Virus record (IMG/VR): IMGVR_UViG_3300029932_000004
DNA: 38,239 nt
Source: a virus
Reading direction: 5' to 3' (one strand)
Positions within the stretch are counted from its first letter, which is position 1. Each line of letters begins with the position of its first letter. Shown piece after piece: positions 1-38,239 of this stretch. The notes under the pieces were generated by a model. That model was not told the DNA's origin, did not search any database, and saw only the letters and a program-made list of their open reading frames with translations. The position numbers were made by a program, and so were the translations under genes.

Positions 1-77
1 GGTGCAACGCTTCGCGCCAATCGCCGCGAGATATTCGAGCTCAGTTTCAGCATCCATCACAAACATCAGACCCATAT
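1..77. repeat. Terminal direct repeat, copy 1 (identical to 38163..38239); circular-closure overlap
   Basis: The first 77 nt (ggtgcaacgcttcgcg...atcagacccatat) recur exactly as the last 77 nt of the window. A minus-strand gene and its Shine-Dalgarno (SD) sequence read straight across the junction. Confidence 0.95.
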
Positions 78-85
78 ATCACCTC

Positions 86-307
86 CTAGAATGGAATGTA
101 GTCGTCAATCTGGTTGCACTCGCAGCGAGCCTCTTCCTGAGAGAGAGCACCGCCGGGAATAATACATTCATCGTACACAGTGACCCAGCCCGTACCCTGG
201 CAGATATCGCAGGAGTCGGTAGGGGTCGGGTAGAAACGCTCGGCATCAATCCACTCGTTAAACTGCGCCTGTTCACTCTTTGGCAAGTCGTCAATTCCGT
301 TGATCAT
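86..307 (-). CDS. Small zinc-finger protein (CxxCxGxG DnaJ-type motif), first gene of the leftward operon
   Basis: This is ORF-track frame 86..373. I moved the start to ATG 307..305, which is preceded by GGAGAGAG (revcomp of 313..320); the longer version would run into the promoter. The product is 73 aa with the pattern CDICQGTG-x7-C-x13-CEC. Confidence 0.7.
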   Translation of the reverse strand: MINGIDDLPKSEQAQFNEWIDAERFYPTPTDSCDICQGTGWVTVYDECIIPGGALSQEEARCECNQIDDYIPF

Positions 308-357
308 TGTGGCTCTCTCCGGTTCATCGGCGGCTCCATTGCCGCTTCGATGGTTGG

Positions 358-386
358 ATATTACAGTTATCACTCTTATTTGTCAA
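358..386 (-). promoter_or_regulatory. Leftward sigma70-type promoter
   Basis: On the minus strand: -35 TTGACA (revcomp of 381..386), a 17-nt spacer, and -10 TAATAT (revcomp of 358..363). It lies about 45 nt upstream of the 307 start. Confidence 0.7.
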
Positions 387-389
387 TAA

Positions 390-416
390 GAAAATATCGA
401 ATAATAAAATATTTTC
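390..416. promoter_or_regulatory. Operator-like inverted repeat between the divergent promoters
   Basis: GAAAATAT (390..397) and ATATTTTC (409..416) form a perfect 8-bp inverted repeat with an 11-nt AT-rich spacer. It sits exactly between the two -35 boxes. Confidence 0.5.
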
Positions 417-419
417 CAT

Positions 420-448
420 TTGACAGTTTCCCTGTTCCCGTCTATAGT
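420..448 (+). promoter_or_regulatory. Rightward sigma70-type promoter
   Basis: TTGACA (420..425), a 17-nt spacer, and TATAGT (443..448). This is close to consensus. Confidence 0.75.
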
Positions 449-755: not shown

Positions 756-815
756 TGCCGGGATCCTCCCGAGGTTTGTCTACACACCTGCCCCCGGGAG
801 TCCTCTTTGATGGGT

Positions 816-897
816 CGGATGATCTTTGACACTCTGGAGAGAGACCAGAGTGGATATACCCACATTGTGAACGACAGAAGCGGAGATCCCGCGACCG
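816..897 (+). repeat. Non-coding repeat unit 1 (CGGATGATCTTT ... GATCCCGCGACCG)
   Basis: The 5' end CGGATGATCTTT (816..827) and the 3' end GATCCCGCGACCG (885..897) are both repeated in unit 2. GGATGAT (818..824) can pair with ATCATCC (902..908). Confidence 0.6.
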
Positions 898-948
898 GCC
901 CATCATCCACCTCTGCAAGCGCAGAGATCCATGGCTCTATTCCGACTG

Positions 949-980
949 TGGGAGGAGGGTCTGCAACTCCTCCCATTTAT
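949..980 (+). terminator. Rho-independent terminator-like hairpin
   Basis: GGGAGGAG (949..956), a 9-nt loop, and CTCCTCCC (966..973), followed by ATTTATT. Confidence 0.55.
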
Positions 981-1075
981 TGAGCCTCTCGCGCTGCAAC
1001 CAATCTCTCCAGGCGGAGAGCTGTTCTGTGTGTCCTCGATGGCATCTAGACCACCAGAGCAGTCACGACAGGTCA

Positions 1076-1141
1076 CGGATGATCTTTTGCGTAATAAGTT
1101 TCGTGACAAATCGAGAAGCGATAGCGGTGATCCCGCGACCG
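1076..1141 (+). repeat. Non-coding repeat unit 2 (CGGATGATCTTT ... GATCCCGCGACCG)
   Basis: CGGATGATCTTT lies at 1076..1087 and GATCCCGCGACCG at 1129..1141. The unit is enclosed by GGTCACGG (1071..1078) and CCGTGACC (1139..1146), followed by a T6 run (1149..1154). Confidence 0.6.
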
Positions 1142-1158
1142 TGACCTGTTTTTTATCA

Positions 1159-1186
1159 TTGACAAATAAGGGAAATCGTGAATAAT
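1159..1186 (+). promoter_or_regulatory. sigma70-type promoter upstream of the replication genes
   Basis: TTGACA (1159..1164), a 16-nt spacer, and AATAAT (1181..1186) with TG immediately upstream. The -35 context TTGACAAATAAG is shared with the leftward promoter at 375..386. Confidence 0.6.
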
Positions 1187-1351
1187 AACGATCGTGGTTT
1201 CGGAGTGACGCCCGACGAGACAAGGCCACACATGATAAGCGCAAACAATCACGAGCCTTCAGTGAAGGCGGGTCAGGCAACGGAGACTGTCACTCTCCAC
1301 GCGCTTATCACCTGCCCGTTTTCACTGAGGGCTTTTTCTATTGGAGCACCA

Positions 1352-2206
1352 ATGGCAAATTCACAGATATATGATGAATGGGGATCATTTGCGGCGATTC
1401 CGCACCAGTTCATTGATGCGGCTGGGCAATATTCGGATCATGCGCGGTGGCTATTCGTGCTGCTGCGCCGCTACACCAATGGCGAGAGCGGTAAGGCATT
1501 TCCATCGTATGTTTTGATCGAAGAGCATACCGGGTGGAGTCCTAAGACTATCGCAAAAGCTATTCGAGAACTTGAAGCAGGTGGTTGGATTATTCGAAAA
1601 AAGCAATTCTCCGGCCCAACGATTTACAAGCTGGTCAGACCACAGAACTTCCCAGAGGGAAGTAATGACAGTACTTCCCCTAGGGAAGTATCGTACTTCC
1701 CAGAGGGAAGTAATGCACTTCCCTACGGGAAGTCTAAAAAGACTGATAATAAAAAGACTAATAGTAAAAAGACTGAGTGTGGTGATTCGAGCCGGGCCAT
1801 CCCCGCCAGACCGCACACACCACAGACTGATCAGGATGCTGTATCAATCGCTCTGTCCATCTTCCCGACGTTGGGAATATGGCAGCAGGAGGTGATAGCC
1901 AATGGCGACATCAAGCAATTTCACCTTTGGCGGAAAGCTCTGGAGGACTGGCGAGACAACCGCTACAGTCTCCGGAACATCACCGGGCTGATCGACAGTT
2001 ACTATCGGCTCGAGAAAATGGACAACAGAGACAAGGAGTATCGGAACAATGGAACGAATAGGCCAGTACGCGAATCACACAATGAGCGAGCAATCAGAGA
2101 GACAGTCGAATACATCGGCCGTCTCACCGGAACGCCAATCAGCGATAGCAACACTCATTCAGCAGACACGATCTTTAAGCTCCCTCCCGCTTTCGGTGGG
2201 GAATGA
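1352..2206 (+). CDS. Replication initiator, lambda-O-like (N-terminal winged-helix DNA-binding domain, origin embedded in the gene)
   Basis: This is ORF-track frame 1178..2206. I chose ATG 1352 because GGAG (1343..1346) precedes it. The N-terminus (FAAIPHQFIDA...LFVLLRRYTNGESGKAFPSYVLIEEHTGWSPKTIAKAIRELEAGGWI) looks like the HTH/winged-helix phage replication-protein type. Four iterons and an AT-rich tract lie mid-gene. Confidence 0.7.
   Translation: MANSQIYDEWGSFAAIPHQFIDAAGQYSDHARWLFVLLRRYTNGESGKAFPSYVLIEEHTGWSPKTIAKAIRELEAGGWIIRKKQFSGPTIYKLVRPQNFPEGSNDSTSPREVSYFPEGSNALPYGKSKKTDNKKTNSKKTECGDSSRAIPARPHTPQTDQDAVSIALSIFPTLGIWQQEVIANGDIKQFHLWRKALEDWRDNRYSLRNITGLIDSYYRLEKMDNRDKEYRNNGTNRPVRESHNERAIRETVEYIGRLTGTPISDSNTHSADTIFKLPPAFGGE
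1647..1733. repeat. Origin iterons: four 17-bp dyad-symmetric repeats ACTTCCC-N3-GGGAAGT
   Basis: The copies lie at 1647..1663, 1673..1689, 1695..1711 and 1717..1733. Start-to-start spacing is 26, 22 and 22 bp. Confidence 0.8.
1736..1774. repeat. AT-rich tandem repeat (3 x AAAAAGACT at 15-bp period); candidate DNA-unwinding element
   Basis: AAAAAGACT occurs at 1736, 1751 and 1766, immediately after the iterons. Confidence 0.7.
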
Positions 2207-2207
2207 G

Positions 2208-2654
2208 TTGGCATTTGCCGTGCAGACCTGGACGACGGCTCTCGAGGATATTCCTGATCATATGCTTGGACCCAGCTGGAAGAGGGCAACTAAAGATCAT
2301 GACTGGTCCAAACCATTTCCAGCTCACGCACTGTTGCCAGCATATAAGGCTCTCCTGCTCGAGGATCGGGACAAACGCCAATCACTCGGTGGTCGTCGCC
2401 AGGACGACACGACCCGGTGCCGCTGGTGTGATGATACCGGGTACGTCCCGATCGCAACCTACTGCCCGACGGGTCAGGAGTGGTATTACCCTGTCTATGG
2501 TTGCGAATGCGCGGCCACTCCAATCAATCAGCGGTCGACGGTTCCCGTTCACCCACTCTGGAGCCGAGACGATTACGGGCGTTGGGTTCCGCCGAGTGCC
2601 GATGCCTCGCCCAAGTGCCGCTGCGGGTTCTGCCGCAATAAGGGGTCCTGGTAA
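2208..2654 (+). CDS. Replication-module protein with a Cys-rich C-terminal domain (possible helicase-loader-like N-terminus)
   Basis: This is ORF-track frame 2049..2654. ATG 2049 and ATG 2082 would overlap the initiator gene by more than 120 nt. TTG 2208 follows GGTGGGG (2196..2201) and sits 2 nt after the initiator stop. The C-terminus carries CRWCDDTG, C-x2-YGCEC and CRCGFC. The start is uncertain. Confidence 0.55.
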   Translation: MAFAVQTWTTALEDIPDHMLGPSWKRATKDHDWSKPFPAHALLPAYKALLLEDRDKRQSLGGRRQDDTTRCRWCDDTGYVPIATYCPTGQEWYYPVYGCECAATPINQRSTVPVHPLWSRDDYGRWVPPSADASPKCRCGFCRNKGSW

Positions 2655-3094
2655 TGGCTGCATATCGCTGGAAGTCCAACAGGAAGACGGGCCGTACCAT
2701 CCCATCAGAGCACGCCGAGCAGGTGGCCCTGATGATCTGGGCGGAGATGTCCGAAGGTTCGTACCCGCTTCTCTCGATGCTCTACGCCGTGCCGAATGGT
2801 GGCTACAGGCATCCCTCAGTAGCCGCCAGAATGAAGGCGGAAGGGGTCAAGCCTGGTGTGCCTGACCTCTGCTTACCCGTGGCCCGGTGTGGGCTTCACG
2901 GGCTCTACATCGAGATGAAAGCCAAAGATGGCCGACTCTCCAAACACCAGCAGCGATGGCGCGATCTCCTGATCGCTCAGGGCTACGGGGTGGCCGTGGT
3001 CTATGGTTTCGATGAGGCAAGAACTGTCCTCATCGAGTATCTCAACGATAGATGGAGCCTGACCGAGCATATCAGGCAGGAAGGTCTACAATGA
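2654..3094 (+). CDS. VRR-NUC domain nuclease
   Basis: The motifs SEHAEQVALMIW...AVPNGG...GVKPGVPDL...GLYIEMKAKDGRLSKHQQRW...GYGVAVVYGFDEA follow the VRR-NUC (PD-(D/E)xK) pattern. Confidence 0.8.
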   Translation: MAAYRWKSNRKTGRTIPSEHAEQVALMIWAEMSEGSYPLLSMLYAVPNGGYRHPSVAARMKAEGVKPGVPDLCLPVARCGLHGLYIEMKAKDGRLSKHQQRWRDLLIAQGYGVAVVYGFDEARTVLIEYLNDRWSLTEHIRQEGLQ

Positions 3095-33926: not shown

Positions 33927-34353
33927 CACTCTATACGCAGATTCGCGGACGATCGCATTATCTCCCCTGACCAAGCATGGGCTGCACTTGTGGAAGCTCG
34001 TGGTGGGTGACACTTGGCACATCAACCGGACGTATACGGGACTGCAGAGCGGAACGACTATATCCAAGTGCTATTGGACGGTGAAGGCGGATCCGGCGGC
34101 GGCTGATGGGGCGGCGATCTTCCAGGTGTCTGTGACGTCGACATCGACCGCGGCAGGGCAGATCGTAGACGACACGAGCAACGGCGGACATATCGAGGTG
34201 TCAGTGATCGCAACCAAAACTCAGACGGCATTGATCACACCCGGCCAGACGTACCATTACGATATTCAGGGGATCGACAGCAACAATCAGGTCTATACGT
34301 TTGAGGTGGGAACGCTTGAAGCGCAGCAGGGCGTGACGGCGGCGACTACTTAG
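33913..34353 (+). CDS. Hypothetical beta-rich protein (last rightward gene)
   Basis: AGGAGGAG lies upstream. The ORF is 146 aa. Confidence 0.55.
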   Translation: MAHDNTLYADSRTIALSPLTKHGLHLWKLVVGDTWHINRTYTGLQSGTTISKCYWTVKADPAAADGAAIFQVSVTSTSTAAGQIVDDTSNGGHIEVSVIATKTQTALITPGQTYHYDIQGIDSNNQVYTFEVGTLEAQQGVTAATT

Positions 34354-34591
34354 GCTTGATTAGGCCACGCTCCATCAGCGTGGTGTAGGATCTGATGCGG
34401 GTCTTCGTCAGCAAGGCCTTGGGGCTGGTCGACTGCTTCAGCTGCCGCTCTCGCTGTTTGCGAGCATGAGCAGCGCGACACCTGCCGCAACGCTGAGTCC
34501 CGCCGTCCGTGTCACGCAATTGGCAATCAATACAAATGGCCGCCGCGATGAGTGATTCTCGCAGCGGCCTTTTAGTTTTGCGAACCGTCAA
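34346..34591 (-). CDS. Small basic zinc-ribbon protein (last leftward gene)
   Basis: The TTG start (34591..34589) follows AGGAGAG (revcomp of 34596..34602). The protein has CIDC-x11-CGRC and an Arg/Lys-rich tail. Confidence 0.55.
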   Translation of the reverse strand: MTVRKTKRPLRESLIAAAICIDCQLRDTDGGTQRCGRCRAAHARKQRERQLKQSTSPKALLTKTRIRSYTTLMERGLIKPK

Positions 34592-36334: not shown

Positions 36335-36862
36335 CTACTTGATGCGCAGATGCGTTCCGCGCTCCTCGATCCGGCATCCCGGTACATCCTGACCTGACTC
36401 CAGATCCGTTCGGATTGCGTCAACGTCAAGGCGTATCATCCGACGGTGATACTGCTCCGGGGCTGTAGCCGCATCGTGCCGCCAGGCCTCCGGGATGACC
36501 AGCGGCGACTTCCCGCCGTTCTTGGCGATGGTCAGCCGATGCAGTGGCGTCTCGATCTTGGTAACACCCTGCTCGAGCATAAAGTTGTGCAAGGCTGTCT
36601 TGAGGCGTTTGATCGTGTTCTCGTCCGTGTCGACCAAGGCCCCGAGTCTGGCGAGCTCTTCAGTTCGCGCATTCGCCCTTGCTGTGACTGTCGCGATCAG
36701 CCGGCAGTAGTTGTCGATCTTCTGGTCGCGCTCTTCGCCAAGCTCCTTGAACCACGACTCAAGGGCTGATCCCTGCTCGTCGTCGCTGATCTCGCCACCT
36801 GCCTCAGTCAGCATATCGGCCAGCGCGTTCAGGTCTTCTGTGATACGGAATAATGTTCTCAT
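36335..36862 (-). CDS. Siphovirus Gp157-like protein
   Basis: The N-terminus (ITEDLNALADMLTEAGGEISDD...LESWFKEL...KIDNYCRLI), the C-terminus (...GCRIEERGTHLRIK) and the adjacency to an annealing protein fit the Sipho_Gp157 family as I recall it. Confidence 0.55.
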   Translation of the reverse strand: MRTLFRITEDLNALADMLTEAGGEISDDEQGSALESWFKELGEERDQKIDNYCRLIATVTARANARTEELARLGALVDTDENTIKRLKTALHNFMLEQGVTKIETPLHRLTIAKNGGKSPLVIPEAWRHDAATAPEQYHRRMIRLDVDAIRTDLESGQDVPGCRIEERGTHLRIK

Positions 36863-36916: not shown

Positions 36917-37669
36917 TTACGCCTGATTCGTTTGTGCTTCCTTCGCCGCGTCCTGCTCCTCGAGCTTGGTATTCAGCCGGGTGATGACCGTTTCCATTTG
37001 GCTGGTGGTCAGGGTCAGCAGATCTTTCGGCTCGAGGGTCATATCGGATCGGCGCGTGATGTTGCGGATCGCCGTGGCCAACTTGTCGTCGTCAATCCCG
37101 TGGCCGTTGAGTGCGTCAAGGATATGGCCCAGGTACGTCACCTGCTCCTCAGTGGCCAGCTCCTCGACGGGTGCCACGTGTGCGCCGGGGATGGTCTCGG
37201 TCTCAGTCTCATCGAGCATCCCCAGACCGCAGATGGAGAGAGTCACCCGCCGCTTGGCCTTGGTCTCGGCCTTCATCAGAGCATTGGCCAGAGCGTCGCC
37301 TTTCAGCGATCCGACCGTCACGGCTCCAATGGACTCATCCGTCCGACCATCGGGAGTGGTGGCCCGTGCAATGACCATGTACACGTCGCCCACCTGCTCA
37401 CGACTGACGATCGTGACGGATACGCCACGAAGGCTCCGCAGCTGATCGGTCGCGTCCTTCCGGGCATACAAGGTGAGCTTGCCGTTCAGGGTGATATATT
37501 CGAAGGGTTTCGTCAGTGGATTCAGGCCGATCGACTTGCAGACGGCTCCGTAGTAGTTCGCGCGTTCAACGGGTGAGAGTTCCTTGAGGTCGCCCTTGAC
37601 GACGACGTTCTCGACGATTGCGCCAGCGTCCGGCGCGGTGGTTGCGAGTGCATTCTGTGGTGTTGCCAT
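36917..37669 (-). CDS. Single-strand annealing protein, Bet/Red-beta (RecT superfamily)-like
   Basis: The motifs YYGAVCKSIGLNPLTKPFEYI and NALMKAETKAKRRVTLSICGLGMLDETE parallel lambda Bet (QYGLNPWTKEIYAF and RMLRHKAMIQCARLAFGFAGIYDKDEAE) as I remember it. Confidence 0.65.
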   Translation of the reverse strand: MATPQNALATTAPDAGAIVENVVVKGDLKELSPVERANYYGAVCKSIGLNPLTKPFEYITLNGKLTLYARKDATDQLRSLRGVSVTIVSREQVGDVYMVIARATTPDGRTDESIGAVTVGSLKGDALANALMKAETKAKRRVTLSICGLGMLDETETETIPGAHVAPVEELATEEQVTYLGHILDALNGHGIDDDKLATAIRNITRRSDMTLEPKDLLTLTTSQMETVITRLNTKLEEQDAAKEAQTNQA

Positions 37670-37703: not shown

Positions 37704-37732
37704 ATTATCTACAGATCAATGATAATTGTCAA
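37704..37732 (-). promoter_or_regulatory. sigma70-type promoter for the recombination/accessory genes
   Basis: On the minus strand: TTGACA (revcomp of 37727..37732), a 17-nt spacer, and GATAAT (revcomp of 37704..37709). Confidence 0.65.
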
Positions 37733-37739
37733 TTGGTAA

Positions 37740-37961
37740 TTATCTCTGTCGATCAAAATATGCGCGTGTTTGCCGGTCGTCCTCGTCCTGAGCACGAATC
37801 ACCTGCTCGGCGCAACCGGGGCACAGTTCGCCCTCCTCAGTCTCGAGCCAATTCAGGCGGCTCATCAGTGAGCGGATCTCCTGCTCCGCGTCCTCGGTGG
37901 TCAGGATGTTCCGCTCCTCATACAGGCCGCAGTCGTGGCACTCGAGTTCAATTGTCACCAT
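37740..37961 (-). CDS. Small zinc-ribbon protein
   Basis: This is a 73-aa ORF-track entry. AGGAGG lies 6 nt upstream of the ATG. The pattern is CHDC-x35-CPGC. Confidence 0.65.
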   Translation of the reverse strand: MVTIELECHDCGLYEERNILTTEDAEQEIRSLMSRLNWLETEEGELCPGCAEQVIRAQDEDDRQTRAYFDRQR

Positions 37962-38094
37962 TGGTCTCCTCCTTCGCCTTGCAATGCAGGCAGATCGTAC
38001 GGTGTGGGAAGTGGCAAATCTTGGCGCAGTCCTGACAGATTGGATAGTCTGTCAGGTTGTCGCCGCCGCAACGTGGGCAATCAGCGTCGTTCAT
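37948..38094 (-). CDS. Small zinc-ribbon protein (48 aa, below the ORF-track cut-off)
   Basis: ATG 38094..38092 follows GAGGAG. The product is MNDADCPRCGGDNLTDYPICQDCAKICHFPHRTICLHCKAKEETNGDN. Its end overlaps the next start by 14 nt. Confidence 0.6.
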   Translation of the reverse strand: MNDADCPRCGGDNLTDYPICQDCAKICHFPHRTICLHCKAKEETNGDN

Positions 38095-38237
38095 TTTGAC
38101 TCCTCTTCTGTCTGGCAATCCCAGCAGATTGGATCGTCGTCCAGGTGCAACTCATTGCACTGGGTGCAACGCTTCGCGCCAATCGCCGCGAGATATTCGA
38201 GCTCAGTTTCAGCATCCATCACAAACATCAGACCCAT
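38091..38237 (-). CDS. Small zinc-ribbon protein (48 aa) spanning the circular junction
   Basis: The ATG at 38237..38235 is equivalent to 75..73. Its SD, AGGAGGTGAT, lies at 78..87 on the other side of the junction. The product is MGLMFVMDAETELEYLAAIGAKRCTQCNELHLDDDPICWDCQTEEESK. The stop forms an ATGA overlap with the next gene. Confidence 0.6.
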   Translation of the reverse strand: MGLMFVMDAETELEYLAAIGAKRCTQCNELHLDDDPICWDCQTEEESK

Positions 38238-38239
38238 AT
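38163..38239. repeat. Terminal direct repeat, copy 2 (identical to 1..77)
   Basis: These 77 nt are an exact copy of the window start. Confidence 0.95.

Follow-up and report, generated by a model that had tools for sequence, protein, structure and literature searches.

The IMG/VR virus record IMGVR_UViG_3300029932_000004 contains an array of very small cysteine-rich genes, referred to here as g1 to g5, in the leftward early arm of an uncultured phage genome. The window, meaning the whole 38,239-nt stretch of DNA analysed, comprises a 38,162-bp circular-type phage genome (53.5% G+C) plus a 77-bp terminal direct repeat, in which positions 1..77 exactly equal 38163..38239 and which stems from assembly of a circular or circularly permuted genome. 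Four of the genes follow one another on the minus strand across the junction of the two ends. g1 (307..86, 73 amino acids (aa)) encodes a Cys4 module with the acidic C-terminal tail DDYIPF, g2 (38237..38091, 48 aa) a CxxC-x10-CxxC ribbon, and g3 (38094..37948, 48 aa) three CxxC knuckles. In g4 (37961..37740, 73 aa), a helical insert separates two CxxC knuckles, and a basic C-terminal helix follows. The fifth gene, g5 (34591..34346, minus strand, 81 aa, TTG start), encodes CxDC-x11-CxxC with a basic tail behind it. As its last gene, g5 closes the arm, in agreement with a preliminary description of this DNA that had listed it there as a fifth zinc ribbon; the coordinates, lengths and Cys motifs given there for all five open reading frames (ORFs) are reproduced. 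Genes that cross the junction are partly duplicated at the window ends, and g2 is seen at both (complete at 38237..38091, and again at 75..1 with wrap-around) because of the terminal repeat.

The first four genes are tightly packed. A gap of 10 nt separates g1 from g2, and an AGGAGG there overlaps the stop codon of g1. The g2/g3 junction is an ATGA overlap and the g3/g4 junction an overlap of 14 nt, both as previously described. A Shine-Dalgarno (SD) site had been assigned to every gene. This holds for g2 (AGGAGGTGA), g3 (GAGGAG) and g4 (AGGAGGAG), whereas the site of g1 is weaker (GGAGAGAG, 5 nt before the ATG). Three of the genes had been said to escape a 60-aa ORF cut-off, but just g2 and g3, at 48 aa each, are shorter than this, g1 and g4 being 73 aa long. 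The longest ORF that includes g3 has 56 aa, and the longest that includes g1 has 95 aa. Seven ORFs in the window reach 40 aa and hold at least two CxxC motifs, against 1.1 +/- 1.0 in 200 shuffles, and three of the seven are contiguous; the clustering of Cys-rich ORFs is not due to chance. Next to g1, an upstream ORF of 11 codons (MEPPMNRREPQ, 304..339, minus strand) stops at a TGA that forms an ATGA with the start codon of g1. The leader GATGAACCGGAGA also precedes the g1-like gene of a related locus, L173, although the g1 and L173 proteins share just 25% identity.

By comparison with related sequences, g1 to g4 are shown to be four real, co-oriented and tightly coupled early-region genes under purifying selection. 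The same set of 73, 48, 48 and 73 aa recurs in nine metagenome contigs from several samples with independent gene calls. Against relatives, the ratio of nonsynonymous to synonymous polymorphism (pN/pS) is 0.13 for g1 and 0.07-0.16 for g4, and the corresponding substitution ratio (dN/dS) is 0.13-0.14 for g3 and 0.16 for g5, and the more distant pairs approach saturation at synonymous sites. Indels are in frame, with 4 residues before the last CxxC of g3 and 5 residues before the tail of g1. The proposal that these are real, translationally coupled small genes is borne out. The same proposal named disrupted frames or unconserved cysteines in homologues as what would speak against it; in the homologues the frames are intact, dN/dS is ~0.1 and the paired Cys are invariant. 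That the ORFs are non-genic, with Cys patterns arisen by chance in a non-coding leader, has a next-to-nil probability. Short ORFs without a database family would fit such a view, but the comparative data refute it: dN/dS is ~0.1 with synonymous sites saturated, frames are kept across in-frame indels, SD sites and independent gene calls are present, and the enrichment over shuffles is seven-fold.

Conservation is highest at the paired cysteines. In an alignment of seven g1-like proteins, C33, C36, C62 and C64 never vary, unlike C47; a helix-like N-terminal region precedes this single Cys4 site. Relatives of g2 retain C24, C27, C38 and C41 together with H31. In g3, C6, C9, C20, C23 and C38 are invariant, C35 is present in four of five relatives, H28 and H31 are mostly kept, and C27 is not kept. 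The motifs first listed for these two proteins therefore each held one cysteine, g1 C47 and g3 C27, that relatives do not conserve. In g4, C11, C47 and C50 are invariant, the first knuckle becomes C-x4-C in distant relatives, and the insert between the knuckles is helical with W38 and G44. All four Cys of g5 are kept in six sequences (relatives L001-L005). The paired Cys of g1 to g4, with some His, are thus the most conserved residues and are most simply read as those of zinc-stabilised mini-domains. Zinc binding, complex formation and a function of the tail are inferred.

None of the proteins belongs to a recognised family, as had been stated from the start. Searches of Pfam, PHROGs and NCBIfam with the five mini-proteins and ten relatives return nothing above threshold, and PDB sequence searches with g1, g3 and g4 give no significant match. 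Generic zinc-ribbon matches in Pfam stay below threshold, at 15-18 bits against family cut-offs of 27-34, and the best family-library score overall is 18 bits, for DZR_2 with g3. The CxxC-x10-11-CxxC spacing resembles that of several zinc ribbons (DZR/DZR_2, Zn_ribbon_8 (FmdB), zf-ChsH2/DUF35_N and Nop10), as do an 'hFPxR' hairpin at g3 residues 20-38 and an N-terminal 'xIELECxxCG' in g4 similar to the start of Zn_ribbon_8. Two specific assignments were rejected. The double zinc ribbon (PF12773 / PF18912) calls for a pair of successive CxxC…CxxC ribbons and ~27 bits, whereas g3 has three CxxC only and reaches 18.3 and 17.5 bits (E 2e-3 and 4.5e-3). As Zn_ribbon_8 / FmdB (PF09723), g4 scores 15.1 bits over residues 1-22 only, against a cut-off of 34.4; that family has CxxC-x(~14-20)-CxxC within ~40 residues, whereas 35 residues lie between the g4 knuckles.

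Larger searches add few members. A word-indexed search of 5.8 billion proteins finds near relatives of g1, g3 and g4 only, a full HMMER search with g1, across 1.84 billion representatives, recovers nothing beyond its own cluster and spurious repeat proteins, and scans of viral, genome and metagenome collections yield few extra members. No mini-gene homologue occurs among 80 prophage-type genome loci. Source annotations, where given, are mostly 'hypothetical protein'; one source labels g1 a 'RecJ-like exonuclease', a label that no search here backs. As far as these collections reach, the mini-gene families are shown to be small orphans confined to one uncultured phage clade.

The CDICQGTG of g1 (CxxCxGxG) had been described as a DnaJ-type finger, which raises the idea that g1 is a DnaJ-type co-chaperone-like module or an anti-TRAP-like inhibitor, in an array for folding or chaperone hijacking. 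Anti-TRAP and the DnaJ Cys-rich domain offer an analogy of mechanism, namely a small CxxCxGxG zinc knuckle used for protein binding or inhibition, and the L010, L071 and L033 proteins have several CxxCxGxG repeats with sub-threshold matches to DnaJ_CXXCXGXG and Anti-TRAP. The motif is present once in g1, however, compared with two to four repeats in the Anti-TRAP and DnaJ families, the second knuckle is CxC, and g1 has no Pfam match, DnaJ_CXXCXGXG included, even at E <= 10. Nor do relatives keep the motif, L176 having CPHCDDTG and the L003 relative, which is outside the alignment, C-x4-C-x-N-G. The DnaJ central Cys-rich domain (PF00684; four CxxCxGxG, two zinc) is rejected as a family for g1, which has one CxxCxGxG plus CxC and a GxG that relatives do not keep, and a chaperone-related role is very improbable.

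Small C4 proteins may also act in transcription, and g1 to g5 could in principle be zinc-ribbon regulators of the Ogr/Delta or TraR/Orf73 type that bind RNA polymerase or DNA and early on switch the transcription of host or phage. In size (48-81 aa) and in their C4 motifs they are like Ogr/Delta and TraR/lambda Orf73 (PMC9239242). Basic C-terminal helices are present in g4 and g5, and g3 has weak sub-threshold matches to the transcription-associated zinc ribbons Spt4 and RPA12. The Ogr/Delta motif is CxxC-x22-CxxxxC. The Cys spacings found here are x10 (g2), x10 and x11 (g3), x35 (g4) and x11 (g5), those of g1 and g5 differing from the others, and none is the x17 of TraR. No match to Pfam zf-dskA_traR or Ogr_Delta appears at E <= 10, the N-terminal DxxDxA helix is absent, and separate helix-turn-helix (HTH) regulators are already present at the divergent promoter. 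Both families were rejected, TraR/DksA (PF01258) for want of CxxC-x17-CxxC, DxxDxA and a Pfam match, and Ogr/Delta (PF04606) on its differing spacing and the lack of a Pfam match at E <= 10 for all five proteins. As the proteins lack the hallmarks of TraR and Ogr, a role as transcription factors is less likely; we consider it improbable, though less so than a chaperone role.

Kinship within the array is limited. Comparisons were confined to g2, g3 and g4, with a g1-like module entering only through a fusion in L004. The five had been viewed as a family of mini-proteins, but profile comparisons show g4 to be unrelated to g2 and to g3. The pairwise check proposed with that view gives one weak likeness only, which aligns g2 with the N-terminal g3 ribbon (hhalign probability 62%, E 7e-5; p 0.017 in a Cys-fixed shuffle) and hints that g2 may be a paralogue of that first ribbon. 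An AlphaFold2 model of g3 has a predicted local distance difference test score (pLDDT) of 50.6. It was kept out of the fold search for this reason, and its being unusable as structural support counts against the interpretation developed below. A further resemblance involves the 148-aa protein encoded after the replication initiator (2208..2654, plus strand), whose C-terminal CRWCDDTGYV-x5-C-x12-CEC has a five-Cys pattern like the CDICQGTGWV-x5-C-x13-CEC of g1. The likeness was spotted post hoc and, because its hhalign probability is only 10% (E 3e-3), remains a lead. One metagenome contig carries a rival gene call over 2208..2654 in another frame (2203..2865, 220 aa).

The most distinctive feature of the array is the C-terminus of g1, which reads …CECNQIDDYIPF. 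A DD[YC][IV]PF end is present in all 16 sequences read from the g1 cluster of 26, including two with a 5-aa insertion just before it. The L173 protein, collinear with g1 (pairwise E 4e-4, ~25% identity), ends in …EEEVPF, those of L176/L006 in …NDEVPY and those of L002/L003/L005 in …TEVPF, while the L004 fusion has the variant …EEVMPI. Diverged proteins at the g1 position, ~25% identical or alignable over just the Cys region, keep the two Cys knuckles and little else, yet have an acidic stretch and [IV]P[FY] last. The same tail type is found on unrelated zinc mini-proteins near the gene for a 250-aa protein that anchors the arm, in L132 (a Herpetosiphon prophage; 75 aa, …DDELPF) and L033. Across 160 loci, acidic-[IVLM]P[FY] tails number 37 in sense against 6 in antisense orientation, and their bearers are proteins the size of SSB, the protein that binds single-stranded DNA, in 28 loci, several 250-aa homologues, and zinc mini-proteins. 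The 250-aa homologues with SSB-like acidic-[IVLM]PF ends are those at L050 5998..6852, L052 5998..6828, L067 372..1169, L129 3989..4981 and L154 3899..4915, with the tails …GEIPF, …ADEIPF, …DAEMPF, …DDGDVPF and …DDDDLPF; the copy in the window has no such tail.

This ending resembles the docking tip of SSB and suggests a testable function. In SSB, DDDIPF is a conserved docking hexapeptide for many genome-maintenance proteins (PMC5872125), and RecT proteins recognise the last 7 residues of SSB (bioRxiv 10.1101/2020.04.14.041095). As in that tip, which docks partner proteins and ends in [IL]PF, DDYIPF and its counterparts in relatives run from acidic residues through a hydrophobic one and Pro to an aromatic one at the C-terminus (PMC5872125). 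Unlike SSB, g1 has no OB fold; its tail sits on a ~30-residue Cys4 module, and docking to partners is a prediction only. Acidic, Phe-ending tails are shared by T7 gp2.5 and gp4. An assignment of g1 itself to SSB (PF00436, OB fold) was rejected, with no Pfam match. The window contains no SSB detectable by tblastn with 14 SSB-like proteins of relatives or by Pfam scans of 20 early proteins. The idea that zinc-tail proteins and SSB genes exclude each other across loci was considered and dropped, the numbers being too small.

The genes around the tail-bearing module turn over. An extra 76-aa gene (MNITTISDLINYLDCG…) lies exactly between the promoter/leader and g1 in L085 and L087-L089; extra genes of 73-76 aa before g1 map to L085 1925..2155, L087 3386..3616, L088 950..1180, L089 47..277 and L086 1..222. 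g2 is dispensable, as it is absent from L087-L089, where an 82-nt gap takes its place. A g3 gene followed by an overlapping g4-like gene is also kept in L001, L173 and L174, and in L004 a g3-like ribbon is fused to the g1-like module, and a g4-like gene comes later. Directly before the 250-aa gene, L002, L003 and L005 carry a different Cys-rich mini-protein (MAEPIYYTYRCGYPACH…CGRCE…; L002 5679..5927, L003 5475..5927 with M at about 5680, L005 709..1035) that matches phrog_32948, of unknown function, at E 2e-7. Counted over 70 related viral loci, the 2.5 kb upstream of the 250-aa gene contain paired-CxxC mini-ORFs 37 times in sense and 5 times in antisense orientation. The block is shown to behave as a modular accessory cassette in which single genes come and go, with other Cys-rich mini-genes at that position in distant relatives. 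It stands at the head of a recombination arm, where genes for a probable Rad52-like annealing protein and for Gp157 follow.

In kind, the closest analogue is the exo-xis region of lambda, where small early proteins lie beside recombination genes. They include the zinc-binding Ea8.5 (homeodomain/zinc-finger) and the TraR-like C4 protein Orf73, as well as Orf60a/61/63, and they modulate host and phage physiology rather than catalysing reactions (PMC8614690, PMC9239242). Both regions hold a run of very small, non-essential-looking early genes of the leftward arm next to recombination genes. There is no detectable sequence relationship, however; the Cys spacing differs, and DxxDxA and CxxC-x17-CxxC are absent here. 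The genes described here also lie upstream of the annealing-protein gene, overlap tightly and include one with an SSB-tip-like tail.

The reading we tentatively favour, at somewhat less than an even chance, is that g1 to g4 are zinc-stabilised adaptors or decoys acting on the host SSB interactome or on recombination. The mini-proteins would serve recombination and replication through protein or nucleic-acid contacts and not as enzymes. g1 would be a one-zinc module presenting a flexible acidic tip (…DDYIPF) that mimics the DDDIPF of SSB. This tip could dock in the pockets of host SSB partners (RecQ, ExoI, RecJ, PriA, RecO) or of phage annealing proteins, so that partners would be recruited to the binding sites of the zinc module or host SSB would be outcompeted for them. 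g3 and g4, which always overlap, are probably a co-translated pair working with g1, and g3 is once fused to a g1-like module. The evidence, as far as sequence comparison carries it, points more specifically to a recombination and SSB-interaction module than did the broad initial suggestion of metal-dependent host-takeover, anti-defence or nucleic-acid-binding factors.

Several observations weigh against this adaptor or decoy reading. The tail motif was spotted post hoc, and the link of g1 to its distant relatives consists of position, Cys pattern and tail, with E values of 4e-4 (L173) and 0.25 (L176). In L173, the acidic codons (GAAGAGGAG) double as the SD site of the next gene, which may partly explain the acidity. 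The tail is compared with the general SSB tip DDDIPF, from which the tip of the host SSB may differ, and g2, g4 and g5 have no link to SSB. That the 4 loci with zinc-tail proteins are not among the 28 with SSB-sized tail bearers is statistically meaningless. In addition, the assignment of the 250-aa neighbour to annealing proteins hangs on a poor model (pLDDT 46, template modelling (TM) scores 0.2-0.6).

The cassette may instead encode generic host take-over or anti-defence mini-proteins, each ribbon inhibiting a different host protein (a nuclease, a defence sensor, or a division or transcription factor), with the IPF tail incidental and no special tie to SSB or recombination. Its early leftward position behind a consensus promoter fits this, as do its high turnover and mosaicism, with other Cys-rich ORFs in L002/L003/L005, L007, L010, L015 and others, and its orphan families, which are typical of arms-race accessory genes. 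The lambda exo-xis precedent of small early proteins, two of them zinc-binding (PMC8614690, PMC9239242), also favours it. Such a role would leave unexplained why an acidic-[IV]P[FY] tip is the best-kept feature of very diverged g1-like proteins, and why the tail recurs on unrelated zinc mini-proteins, SSB-sized proteins and 250-aa homologues nearby. Strong purifying selection (dN/dS ~0.1) is also unlike a fast arms race within the clade. Generic take-over is on balance possible but doubtful, and clearly more probable than a role as transcription regulators.

A broader extension of the adaptor or decoy reading is that zinc-knuckle mini-proteins with a tip mimic form an undescribed phage class, not SSBs themselves, that plugs into the host SSB interactome, with g1 and g3/g4 as a split, non-OB 'SSB-tail adaptor'. 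The proposed members are g1, L173, L176/L006, L002/L003/L005, the L004 fusion, L132 from Herpetosiphon and L033. In this phage, where no SSB is detectable, the split adaptor would recruit recombination and replication proteins of host or phage origin to the phage DNA, or would act as a decoy blocking SSB-dependent host nucleases or defences. We regard such a class as conceivable but unlikely. In type, the array is real but ordinary, an orphan accessory cassette of small zinc proteins; its one unusual trait, judged from motif likeness, is that zinc knuckles carry an SSB-tip-like tail.

In phage genomes, no pool of unknown function is larger than the small early proteins, most of them without an experimental handle, and here the comparative data turn an anonymous cluster of Cys-rich ORFs into experimentally addressable questions. 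If the tail is a working tip mimic, it would give phages that lack an SSB a route to use or block the host SSB interaction hub, which also governs the performance of phage recombinases in new hosts (recombineering). If the tail is non-functional, the array is one more ordinary fast-turnover accessory cassette at the start of an early operon.

The 250-aa protein (36917..37669, minus strand) is the conserved anchor of the arm. Its N-terminal domain is 45-74% identical across 485 viral (IMG/VR) contigs and bacterial genomes of many phyla, and the protein is found at 137 genome loci. It has no Pfam, PHROG, NCBIfam or PDB-sequence match. In a Foldseek search with the low-confidence AlphaFold2 model, the 14 best hits are all related to RAD52, Mgm101 or Red-beta (probability 0.54-0.99, mostly at least 0.9; E 1e-3 to 5e-2). 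Next to it lies a gene for a Sipho_Gp157 / Mu Gam-like protein (36335..36862, minus strand), a usual neighbour of phage annealing-protein genes; Gp157 genes adjoin erf/sak4-ssb modules (PMC8093625). Membership of the Rad52/Sak/Red-beta group is defined here by a beta-beta-beta-alpha core, single-stranded DNA annealing, and Gp157/Gam and SSB neighbours. The 250-aa protein is treated as an annealing protein because of the Foldseek ranking and the adjoining Gp157 gene. It is probably a Rad52-like single-strand annealing protein, and its family looks like a widespread, unannotated family of annealing proteins. The window has zero DNA similarity to cultured phages, and at the protein level the 250-aa gene alone has matches, to proteins annotated as hypothetical in two Campylobacter phages and an environmental one.

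The mini-gene block is preceded by a sigma-70-like promoter (386..358, minus strand; TTGACA-17-TAATAT) that matches the consensus at 10 of 12 positions. The preliminary description had considered this the strongest-looking early promoter and the block simply the first genes of its operon. Neither point is supported: three other early-region sites match at 11/12, at 420..448 and 1159..1186 on the plus strand and at 37732..37704 on the minus strand. The last of these (TTGACA-17-GATAAT) is a second, better consensus promoter that starts 8 nt past the g4 stop, before the 250-aa gene. The block is therefore viewed as a short first unit that a second promoter follows, on account of this 11/12 site directly after g4; no terminator-like site was found between the block and the second promoter. 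On its other side, the block faces the divergent rightward promoter-like site 420..448 and an HTH gene, and the region 327..428 is 75-82% identical across the otherwise diverged loci L001-L004.

For replication and nucleotide metabolism, the window recognisably encodes an O-like initiator, an accessory protein, a VRR-NUC nuclease, a superfamily 2 (SF2) helicase, a dCTP-deaminase-like protein and an HNH endonuclease. Neither Rfam nor tRNA scans find anything in the window. Downstream of the plus-strand promoter-like site at 1159..1186 lie a long hairpin (1253..1334, -50.4 kcal/mol, z -3.4) and then a U-run, shortly ahead of where the replication-initiator gene probably starts. The block 1202..1337, with no Rfam match, is 85% identical in L002 and L003, where its flanks are not alignable. 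The element 1159..1345 (plus strand) is a candidate leader/attenuator or small RNA. It lies in a stretch, 756..1350, without a convincing ORF, where two direct repeats (879/1123 and 816/1076) occur.

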